64,000 nt of DNA from an uncultured Erythrobacter sp. (lineage in GTDB: Bacteria; Pseudomonadota; Alphaproteobacteria; Sphingomonadales; Sphingomonadaceae), in contig CANMSD010000004.1 of assembly GCA_947500645.1 (NCBI GenBank), positions 151,093 to 215,092 of the forward strand, in the 5' to 3' direction. The notes beneath the pieces are model-generated. The model saw only the letters and a program-made list of their open reading frames with translations, searched no databases and had not been told where the DNA came from. Shown piece by piece: positions 11,090-41,356 of this stretch; the first letter of the stretch is position 1, and each line of letters starts with the position of its first letter. The position numbers and the translations under genes were made by a program.

Positions 11090-11167
11090 GCCACCCGCAC
11101 CCTCCACCCTTCCACCCGGATTGTGTCCCGGTAGGATCCGGGTGGAAGGGTGGAGGGTGCGGGTGGC
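11090..11167. repeat. Long palindromic element, family 1, copy A (32-bp perfect arms)
   Basis: GCCACCCGCACCCTCCACCCTTCCACCCGGAT, 14-nt loop, then its exact reverse complement. Confidence 0.9.
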
Positions 11168-25707: not shown

Positions 25708-27237
25708 ATGACCGCGCAGCGAATTGGCCGTGTGCTTGGCCCTCTTCTATTCGCCATCACTGTATTCACCACCGCACCCGCCGGGATGCCGGCTGAGGCA
25801 TGGCTGGTCGCGGGGCTGGTTGTGTGGATGGCCGTGTGGTGGATGACGGAGGCTGTGCCGCTGACCGTCACGGCCCTACTGCCTTTCGTCGTGCTGCCGT
25901 TCAGCGGAGTGTCGAGCGCGCGCGAAGTTGCCAGCACATACTACTCGCCGATCCTGTTCCTGTTGCTGGGCGGAGCGTTCCTGGCGCTCGCCATCGAGCG
26001 GACCGGCCTGCACAAGCGGCTAAGCCTCGCCATCCTGAAGACGATCGGTTCGCGCGGCGGGCAGACGCAATTGCTGCTCGCTTTCATGATCAGCGCCGCG
26101 CTGCTTTCAATGCTGATTTCCAACACCTCGACCAGCCTGATCATGATGCCGATGGCGCTGGCTGTTTTGGCTGGGGGCGCGAACGTGCGCGCCGCCGCGC
26201 CTCCCGCTCCCTCCGCCCTTCCACCCGGAACAGTTTCAGATACGATCCGGGTGGAAGGGCGGAGGGAGCGGGAGGTCCAGCCCGAAGTTTCGGCGGATGC
26301 CGAAACCGCCCTCAATAAGGAAGGCCTATCCGGCGCGCTCCCGATGGGTATCGCCTTTGCCGCCTCTATCGGCGGGCTCGGCACAATCGTCGGTTCCCCC
26401 ACCAACGCCATCGCCGTAGGCCTGCTCGACACGATGATCGGCGTGCAGATCAGCTTCGCGCAATGGACTCTCTACGGCCTGCCCATCGTCATTCTCGGCG
26501 TACCATTGGCCGCCTTCATCATAGCCAAGTTCCAGCGCGTGGCCGAGCACCCCTTCGACGTTGCCGCCGCGCGAAAGGCAATCGACACCCATTCGCGCTG
26601 GACGGAAGCGGAAAAGCGGCTTGTCCCGATCGTGGCGCTGACATTCCTAGCCTGGATGACCGTGCAATGGGTCCGCCCCTATCTACCCGAGGGCTCGTGG
26701 ACGAATGGCACGATCGCCATCGTCGCCAGCTTCGCACTGTTCCTGATCCCCGACGGCACAGGCCGCCCGCTGCTGGTCTGGAAAGAAGCCGACCGCGCGC
26801 CATGGGGCGTGATCATGATGTTTGGCGGCGGATTGGCGCTGGCCGCCGGCATGCAGGCATCGGGCCTCGCGATCTGGCTGGGCGAGGCCTTGCTGCCACT
26901 TGAAAATCTGCCGATGATCGTCGTCGCACTCTGCGTAGTCGGGATGATCATTGTCATCACCGAATTTGCCAGCAATGTCGCAACCGCAACCGGCATCATC
27001 CCCGTGGTTGCCGCGCTTGTTGTGGCTCTGGGAGCCGACCCGATCCTGCTTGCCATGCCTGCCGCGCTGGCCGCGAGCTGGGGCTTTATGCTGCCAGCAG
27101 GAACCGGGCCCAATGCAATCGCCTGGTCAACAGGTCGTATCCGGATCGAGCGAATGGTCGGCGCTGGCCTGGTGCTAGACCTGGTCGGCATCTTCCTGAT
27201 CGTCGGGATGGTGTGGGGAATTGCGTTCCTAGTTTGA
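25708..27237 (+). CDS. SLC13/DASS family anion permease carrying an in-frame palindromic insertion
   Basis: WWMTEAVP, SMLISNTSTSLIMMPMA, GTIVGSPTNA, TEFASNVAT, GFMLPAGTGPNAI. Confidence 0.93.
   Translation: MTAQRIGRVLGPLLFAITVFTTAPAGMPAEAWLVAGLVVWMAVWWMTEAVPLTVTALLPFVVLPFSGVSSAREVASTYYSPILFLLLGGAFLALAIERTGLHKRLSLAILKTIGSRGGQTQLLLAFMISAALLSMLISNTSTSLIMMPMALAVLAGGANVRAAAPPAPSALPPGTVSDTIRVEGRREREVQPEVSADAETALNKEGLSGALPMGIAFAASIGGLGTIVGSPTNAIAVGLLDTMIGVQISFAQWTLYGLPIVILGVPLAAFIIAKFQRVAEHPFDVAAARKAIDTHSRWTEAEKRLVPIVALTFLAWMTVQWVRPYLPEGSWTNGTIAIVASFALFLIPDGTGRPLLVWKEADRAPWGVIMMFGGGLALAAGMQASGLAIWLGEALLPLENLPMIVVALCVVGMIIVITEFASNVATATGIIPVVAALVVALGADPILLAMPAALAASWGFMLPAGTGPNAIAWSTGRIRIERMVGAGLVLDLVGIFLIVGMVWGIAFLV
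26200..26275. repeat. Long palindromic element, family 1, copy B (30-bp perfect arms), inside the CDS
   Basis: CCTCCCGCTCCCTCCGCCCTTCCACCCGGA, 16-nt loop, exact reverse complement; translated as PPAPSALPPGTVSDTIRVEGRRERE. Confidence 0.9.
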
Positions 27238-27241
27238 CGCA

Positions 27242-27258
27242 GCCGTAGCCTCCCGCTC
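27242..27258. repeat. Short remnant of a family 1 left arm
   Basis: gccgtagcctcccgctc combines the arm starts of copies C and B. Confidence 0.5.
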
Positions 27259-41222: not shown

Positions 41223-41312
41223 GCCGTAGCCTCCCACGCCCTCCGCCCTTCCACCCGGATGATAACCCGGTAGGCTCCGGGTGGAAGGGCGGAGGGCGTG
41301 GGAGGCTACGGC
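41223..41312. repeat. Long palindromic element, family 1, copy C (37-bp perfect arms)
   Basis: GCCGTAGCCTCCCACGCCCTCCGCCCTTCCACCCGGA, 16-nt loop, exact reverse complement; between hisH and hisA. Confidence 0.9.
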
Positions 41313-41356
41313 CAAGGCACGCACGGATGTGCGGGCCGTACACGATAAAAACCCAA

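Follow-up and report, generated by a model that had tools for sequence, protein, structure and literature searches.

The window is a stretch of 64,000 nucleotides (C4:151093-215092) from a 3.38-Mb Erythrobacter genome with 59% G+C, whose named homologues point to Erythrobacter/Altererythrobacter. The feature of interest lies inside an intact gene on the forward strand (25708-27237), which encodes a dicarboxylate/sulfate-type anion symporter of the DASS/SLC13 family with 509 residues. This open reading frame matches the Pfam family Na_sulph_symp (PF00939) at 6e-59, and also CitMHS (PF03600). The NCBIfam model for DASS transporters, TIGR00785, is matched with 241 bits, in two stretches that are separated by an insert. 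These family models score above their cut-offs and the SNT and GSPTN motifs can be read in the translation, which together assign the protein to DASS/SLC13. It is homologous to NaCT, NaDC3 and VcINDY.

The insert contains a palindrome at 26200-26275, made of two 30-nucleotide arms that are 100% complementary and a loop of 16 nucleotides between them. Position 26200 is base 1 of codon 165 of the transporter, and from there the palindrome is translated in silico as PPAPSALPPGTVSDTIRVEGRRERE, flanked by MALAVLAGG and GLSGALPMG. On the forward strand the left arm (26200-26229) is C-rich and reads PPAPSALPPG. The loop (26230-26245) is of the ACAGTTTC.GATACGA subfamily and is stop-free in the transporter frame, and the right arm (26246-26275) is G-rich, has four G3 tracts and reads (I)RVEGRRERE.

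The perfect arms are probably not the full extent of the element. The 12 nucleotides before them (26188-26199, forward strand) are unchanged in the orthologous copy L101, despite an identity of 80% between the two genes, and are a probable, degenerate outer left end. To the right is a forward-strand spacer (26276-26286), of which the first 8 nucleotides are shared with L101 and would be the degenerate outer right end. Taken together, 26188-26199, the palindrome and 26276-26283 measure 96 nucleotides, which is the size of the gap seen in an alignment with the nearest empty orthologue. A small forward-strand hairpin follows at 26287-26306, with an 8-bp stem and a GGAT tetraloop, and is a probable second module of the inserted unit. 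Finally, a 17-nucleotide remnant of the outer arm of the family (27242-27258), which includes the GTAG of that arm, lies 5 nucleotides past the transporter stop codon, so that family sequence is found both within the transporter gene and directly 3′ of it.

A segment of 126 nucleotides that contains the palindrome folds with -91.8 kcal/mol, compared with -51.6 +/- 4.1 for dinucleotide shuffles (z = -9.85). In every copy of the family the right arm has four G3 tracts with spacers of 3-5 nucleotides, a canonical G-quadruplex pattern, and the opposite arm is the matching C-rich strand. As far as can be read from the letters, the G-rich arm is a G-quadruplex-type motif.

A search with the 14-nucleotide core of the arm recovers six occurrences in the 64-kb window, where 0.56 are expected from shuffles, and these make up three hairpins. 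Two are intergenic. The first (11090-11167) has 31-nucleotide arms and a 16-nucleotide loop. The second, which we call copy C (41223-41312), is full-length, with 37-nucleotide arms and GTAG in its outer ends, and is followed after 7 nucleotides by a small GGAT-loop hairpin (41320-41333). A preliminary description of this DNA had already noted a perfect 76-bp hairpin that starts on a codon boundary of the transporter gene, its reading between the two flanking peptides, a second hairpin beside it and members of the same family at 11090 and 41223. It had also stated that the loop in the gene is free of stops and that the loop of copy C would give a stop; the latter begins TGATAA. All of its factual statements on the sequence are correct, and its peptide agrees exactly with our translation.

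Filled and empty orthologues of the transporter

In alignments with human NaCT and NaDC3 the insert falls in the long variable loop that runs from the SNT re-entrant hairpin (HPin) to TM5. From the asparagine of SNT to the GSP of TM5 there are 90 residues here and approximately 50 in orthologues with a minimal loop, and the latter match the N151-G199 spacing of VcINDY (PMC5413979). The published topology has HPin entering from the cytoplasmic side, and the loop that bears the insert is therefore expected to be cytoplasmic. An AlphaFold2 prediction on an alignment of 20 sequences had a mean pLDDT of 35, which is too low to place the loop.

The transporter orthologues of 19 genomes of the same genus align on both sides of the insert and have a gap over residues 158-203. 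Most of the family has a loop of 17 residues, compared with 57 here. An alignment of orthologues had been suggested in the preliminary description as a check on its proposal, and the outcome favours that proposal: palindrome-free orthologues have short loops of 17-34 residues that do not align with the long one. The nearest empty orthologue, with 88% protein identity, differs by a single clean gap of 96 nucleotides. Between L102 (filled) and L023 (empty), which the gene tree places as a starred sister pair, the difference is 93 nucleotides.

Among the 94 distinct orthologues compared, 13 carry the element in the same loop, in two reading frames. Frame A is used by eight genes, that of this genome and seven others, and their outer arms differ and are partly compensated. 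The remaining five genes use frame B, where the arms start at another offset and read LHPSTR...PGGRVEG. The closest protein homologues of the transporter carry the same peptide, and the palindrome is present in the DNA of each one that was retrieved. On a tree of the 94 orthologues, built with the loop left out of the alignment, filled and empty genes are intermixed, with starred sister pairs among them, and the tree requires a minimum of 13 changes of state. The two frames and the intermixed tree indicate that the transporter loop has been hit more than once. All of the frame-A copies sit at one junction, seven residues past the GG, and in the same frame.

The longest loops are those of L108 (the CP050265.1 orthologue) and L034, with 75 and 58 residues. 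Both hold a diverged palindrome and further low-complexity sequence, apparently showing that growth of the transporter loop continues.

A dispersed palindrome family and its coding copies

The family to which the palindrome belongs has approximately 25 copies in this Erythrobacter genome, across four contigs, and these are mostly non-coding. The arms measure 28-40 nucleotides and, without exception, the C-rich arm comes first and the G-rich arm second. Loops are 16 nucleotides long, with 19 in a single subfamily, and both orientations of the loop are seen. Full-length copies have GTAG in their outer arms, and GTAG is likewise found in the common loop. Numbered from the loop, arm positions 15, 22, 24 and 28 differ among copies and are almost always compensated by Watson-Crick pairs, with G-T nearly absent. 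This type of variation favours a palindrome at the level of DNA over selection on an RNA fold.

Outside this genome, 23 of 70 further genomes of the same genus carry the exact inner pattern, with 1-26 copies each, and so do four of 200 genomes sampled from the other genera of the family. A search of Rfam returned no known RNA family for the palindrome, only sub-threshold look-alikes of microRNA precursors that reflect generic hairpin scoring, and blastn of the element against a plasmid collection gave no match. We found no description of this palindrome family in the literature searched and it seems to be undescribed. One copy (C2:837497-837570) has a G-rich arm that has grown to four tandem GGGTGGAA units, an expansion that suggests replication slippage within the arm.

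Chimeric reads can create palindromes, and the element could on this ground be taken for an artefact of assembly or sequencing. We consider this extremely improbable, given that the same element is found at the same site in independent NCBI, ENA and JGI assemblies of different species, besides the 25 copies on the four contigs of this genome.

The loop type of the copy in the transporter gene, ACAGTTTC.GATACGA, recurs in two copies of this genome that lie outside supported coding sequence (C3:167837 and C1:540222), and in a probably non-coding copy of G008. The idea that a stop-free loop is an adaptation to the gene was therefore rejected, as the same loop subfamily is present outside genes. 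A loop free of stops is an ordinary variant of one subfamily.

The small hairpin also has counterparts elsewhere. Hairpins with a GGAY loop (GGAT, GGAC or GGAA) lie 2-11 nucleotides from six of the 26 palindromes of the genome, where 0.14 are expected. The TTTCGGC...GCCGAAA hairpin occurs just twice in the genome, each time adjoining a palindrome. L101, L102 and L103 (frame A) and L029 (frame B, from another clade) have the same composite of palindrome and GGAT hairpin in their orthologous genes, which makes four frame-A genes, with the one described here, and one frame-B gene. That it recurs in frame-A genes and in a frame-B gene of another clade indicates that the two modules probably arrive together, and the small hairpin is thus probably part of the inserted unit.

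GGAT/ATCC is also the commonest tetraloop among the perfect hairpins of at least 7 bp in this genome, with 26 of 398 (e.g. C2:456615, C3:238878, C3:475904, C1:904613 and C2:838074). Many of these hairpins form a REP-like family with an 8-bp stem of the CGCAGSSC type and conserved flanks, to which the small hairpins that adjoin the palindromes seem to be related.

A second gene in this genome is read through a copy of the palindrome. It encodes a protein of the NAD-dependent epimerase family with 323 residues (C3:415882-416850), and the copy is in frame B. Seven orthologues of the epimerase are without approximately 20 residues at the insert, with both flanks conserved. The preliminary description had proposed a count of in-frame copies in coding sequences as a further check; these are the copies in the transporter and epimerase-family genes, two of approximately 25 (about 8%). 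The 13 copies examined in the congener G015 include no intragenic case, and the single copies of G023 and G008 are not convincingly intragenic either. With no intragenic copy in G015 and most copies here non-coding, coding insertions appear to be the exception.

Most of the other copies in this genome precede the first Pfam domain of the adjoining gene and are non-coding, and several candidates were rejected. Copies near genes for an MBL-fold hydrolase, a MiaB-like enzyme, DUF1761, Fpg and an RluA-type synthase are not coding, since in each the element precedes the start of the Pfam domain and is therefore upstream of the likely start codon. A match in MoeA is spurious, with three mismatches.

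The family has a general capacity to be read as protein: 116 of the 150 strand-by-frame readings of 25 copies are stop-free, and the stops fall mostly in the loop. A word-indexed search of 5.8 billion proteins with the frame-A and frame-B peptides returned SLC13 orthologues only, at a limited power that also missed the epimerase of this genome, and may hint that coding insertions of the family are rare. A HMMER search of 1.84 billion representatives with a 31-residue frame-B peptide gave no match, and as it likewise missed the cluster of the source protein its power was too low to be informative.

A perfect GC-rich stem of 30 bp is a strong obstacle in an mRNA and a plausible RNase III substrate. 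For this reason it might be proposed that the element is not translated, and that the hairpin has inactivated or split a gene that is annotated as a single ORF. This is improbable in view of the sequences on either side. The reading frame is kept and conserved on both sides of the palindrome, the two halves share one frame with invariant columns throughout, and the residues C-terminal of the insert are among the most conserved of the transporter in the orthologue alignment. At least 12 other species retain the element in frame, with length differences that are always multiples of three (162, 141, 192 and 126 nucleotides). Inspection of the sequence 3′ of the insert found no start codon with a ribosome-binding site. 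The epimerase tells against it as well, as its C-terminal part is approximately 70% identical downstream of the insert. We infer that the insert peptide is translated.

A second REP-like family was observed in the same protein loops. Its unit is approximately 26 nucleotides long, with a 5-bp stem, a loop with AAGTAGCGAAGCG, and GTAG, and its in-frame reading is (P)SSSEAVGQ. This AAGTAGCGAAGCG family fills the transporter loop in many other Erythrobacteraceae (L016, L056, L058, L064, L066, L067, L072, L096 and L125). In L037 there are five tandem copies of 33 nucleotides, and in L106 a copy is nested in the big palindrome. The family is also present in this genome (C1:1009758-1009824, C2:444820, C2:772386 and C3:430508). 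In G007 it fills the epimerase loop that holds the palindrome here. Both families are found in the transporter loop and in the epimerase loop, therefore two unrelated repeat families use the same two protein loops.

Age and conservation of the copy in the transporter gene

Between this gene and five frame-A orthologues, nucleotide identity is 74-80% overall and 46-57% at third codon positions. Against the same five, the arms are identical at 54-60 of 60 positions and, in three of the five, the loop is identical at 13-15 of 16. The codons of the flanking loop have diverged normally. The copy in this gene is closest to the orthologous L101 copy (60/60 in the arms and 15/16 in the loop) and not to the paralogous copies in its own genome. 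Arms that are near-invariant while silent sites diverge are not what would be expected of an old insertion that persists as a neutral relic, and the copy must be subject either to renewal or to selection.

On balance, we favour the first of these readings, that the copies are young and are renewed by repeated site-specific insertion or conversion. It is suggested by the patchy tree, by the independent frame-B events and by the occurrence of the same loop subfamily outside genes elsewhere.

The second reading, an old copy that is held under selection, is possible and in our view the less probable of the two, and draws on the identical frame-A junction and on the kinship of the in-gene copy with its orthologous counterpart. 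One form of it, to which we give the same modest probability, starts from a single insertion in the ancestor of a subclade, passed on by vertical inheritance. The hairpin would have been kept for a function in the host, and the empty orthologues would be deletions. The function could perhaps be that of a regulatory structure, sensitive to RNase III or of the G-quadruplex type, or that of a protein-binding site. Such a history would explain why the frame-A copies share their junction and frame, why the copy is nearest to that of L101 rather than to the paralogues, and why the flanks diverged normally when the element did not. L023, which is without the palindrome yet has a degenerate small hairpin, carries a deletion-like trace of the kind that it predicts. 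However, many independent losses that preserve the frame would be needed in a shallow clade, and the frame-B copies, with their different offset, show that independent insertions have taken place in this loop. Furthermore, a loop subfamily that is matched near letter for letter outside genes in other genomes is what would be seen for young copies from a common source.

The copy in the transporter gene may, tentatively, be no decaying passenger and may reflect a novel system that is independent of a transposase, or that uses an unknown enzyme, and that repeatedly and site-specifically inserts the element at the same nucleotides of diverged orthologues. The equally tentative counterpart is a hairpin and G4 regulatory structure that is kept by the host, with correction of the DNA from arm to arm.

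Mobilisation, related systems and significance

The agent that moves the palindrome was sought in several ways. No RAYT gene (Y1 transposase, PF01797) was found in this 99.98%-complete genome by a search that detected its positive controls. The genome yielded no parent IS and no partner with the same ends, nor solo arms that bracket a gene, and all arms are paired in hairpins. The flanks of the 25 copies have no direct repeat that would mark a target-site duplication. We conclude that a non-autonomous, genus-wide palindromic repeat has very probably been inserted in frame in the DASS/SLC13 gene. The preliminary description had proposed that a mobile palindrome adds peptide to proteins in this lineage, and the clean gaps of 96 and 93 nucleotides, together with the epimerase copy, support an insert of this type from a family that is presumably mobile.

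Events of this kind have precedents in Rickettsia palindromic elements (RPEs) and in intragenic REPs that include cases in Erythrobacter (PMC3733652). RPEs have been described as 'selfish DNA in protein-coding genes', and intragenic MITEs are known likewise (review PMC10969869). The element described here resembles an RPE in being a multi-copy palindrome that is found both between genes and in frame within conserved genes, where it adds peptide at a tolerated site. As with RPEs, it has no transposase of its own and is patchy among relatives. It differs from RPEs in its shorter length (76-96 nucleotides, against approximately 100-150) and its near-perfect long stem. It also differs in the share of coding copies, about 8% here and nearly half in some RPE families, and in its host, a free-living marine alphaproteobacterium.

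No match to the 44-residue insert peptide was found in NCBIfam at E <= 0.01, nor in Pfam, and the DASS model is the only NCBIfam model that is matched by the whole protein. NCBIfam presumably contains the RPE and WPE domain models. The element works like an RPE but, judged by its peptide, appears to fall outside the RPE sequence families of Rickettsia and the WPE families of Wolbachia. The parallel with RPEs that the preliminary description had drawn is thus apt for the kind of event, but it does not extend to a relationship of sequence.

A closer comparison, in terms of host, is with the intragenic REPs and REP dimers tagged by GTAG or CGTC, which have been reported in Erythrobacter litoralis and Sphingopyxis alaskensis among others (Di Nocera, De Gregorio and Rocco 2013, PMC3733652). 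Intragenic REPs are often inverted dimers that encode 20-30 residues, and some are tied to longer palindromes (PMC3733652). Our repeats are likewise small and palindromic, come from the same bacterial group and are in frame in genes, and the small hairpin shares the geometry of CGTC-1, an 8-bp stem with a 4-nucleotide loop (PMC3733652). In contrast to those REPs, the 30-37-nucleotide arms found here are only C-rich or G-rich and have no self-complementarity, there are no stem-loop halves headed by GTAG or CGTC, the small hairpin has no CGTC head, and the genome has no RAYT gene. A REP dimer would consist of stem-loop arms, and the palindrome therefore does not qualify as one.

REPINs are REP doublets that form hairpins and are mobilised by RAYT transposases. 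The palindromes resemble them as long hairpins of inverted halves, in tens of copies per genome, with compensated differences. Unlike REPINs, they occur here without a RAYT, and their stems are perfect, without the bulges that are expected from two REP stem-loops.

Coding palindromes have also been described in mitochondrial genes of Nematomorpha (PMC6649704). There too, perfect long inverted repeats are in frame in genes and both arms are translated, but these are animal mitochondria, and their repeats are not known to belong to a family that is dispersed between genes. MITEs share with our element the possession of terminal inverted repeats, although here the arms are nearly the whole element. 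The element also differs from MITEs in having no target-site duplication and no parent IS with the same ends.

The most probable mechanism is as follows. A process that does not depend on RAYT would place a palindromic unit of 90-120 nucleotides into DNA. Within genes, such an insertion would usually be lethal to the gene and would then be lost. Survival would need a net length that is a multiple of three, an orientation in which the loop is stop-free, and a flexible loop in the protein. The transporter gene would have survived because the arms hold few stops in any frame or strand, the added length is a multiple of three, and the protein loop tolerates changes in length. Read-through would then add approximately 32-40 residues, rich in Pro, Ser and Ala from the C-rich arm and then in Arg, Glu and Gly from the G-rich arm. 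The mRNA would bear a perfect stem of 30 bp, and possible effects may include slower translation, cleavage by RNase III and a G-quadruplex formed by the G-rich arm.

Taken as a whole, this is a clean case, from a free-living bacterium, of a dispersed palindrome that is apparently read as protein, with filled and empty sister genes as a natural comparison. There is a warning here for the annotation of genomes, as low-complexity inserts of 20-40 residues in Erythrobacteraceae proteins can derive from repeats. Repeated filling, by two repeat families and in different frames, marks the loops of the transporter and the epimerase as permissive sites, and such loops are useful for the engineering of DASS transporters. 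The system also lends itself to two further questions: how repeats move without a recognisable transposase, and how an intragenic copy stays nearly unchanged while the silent sites around it diverge.
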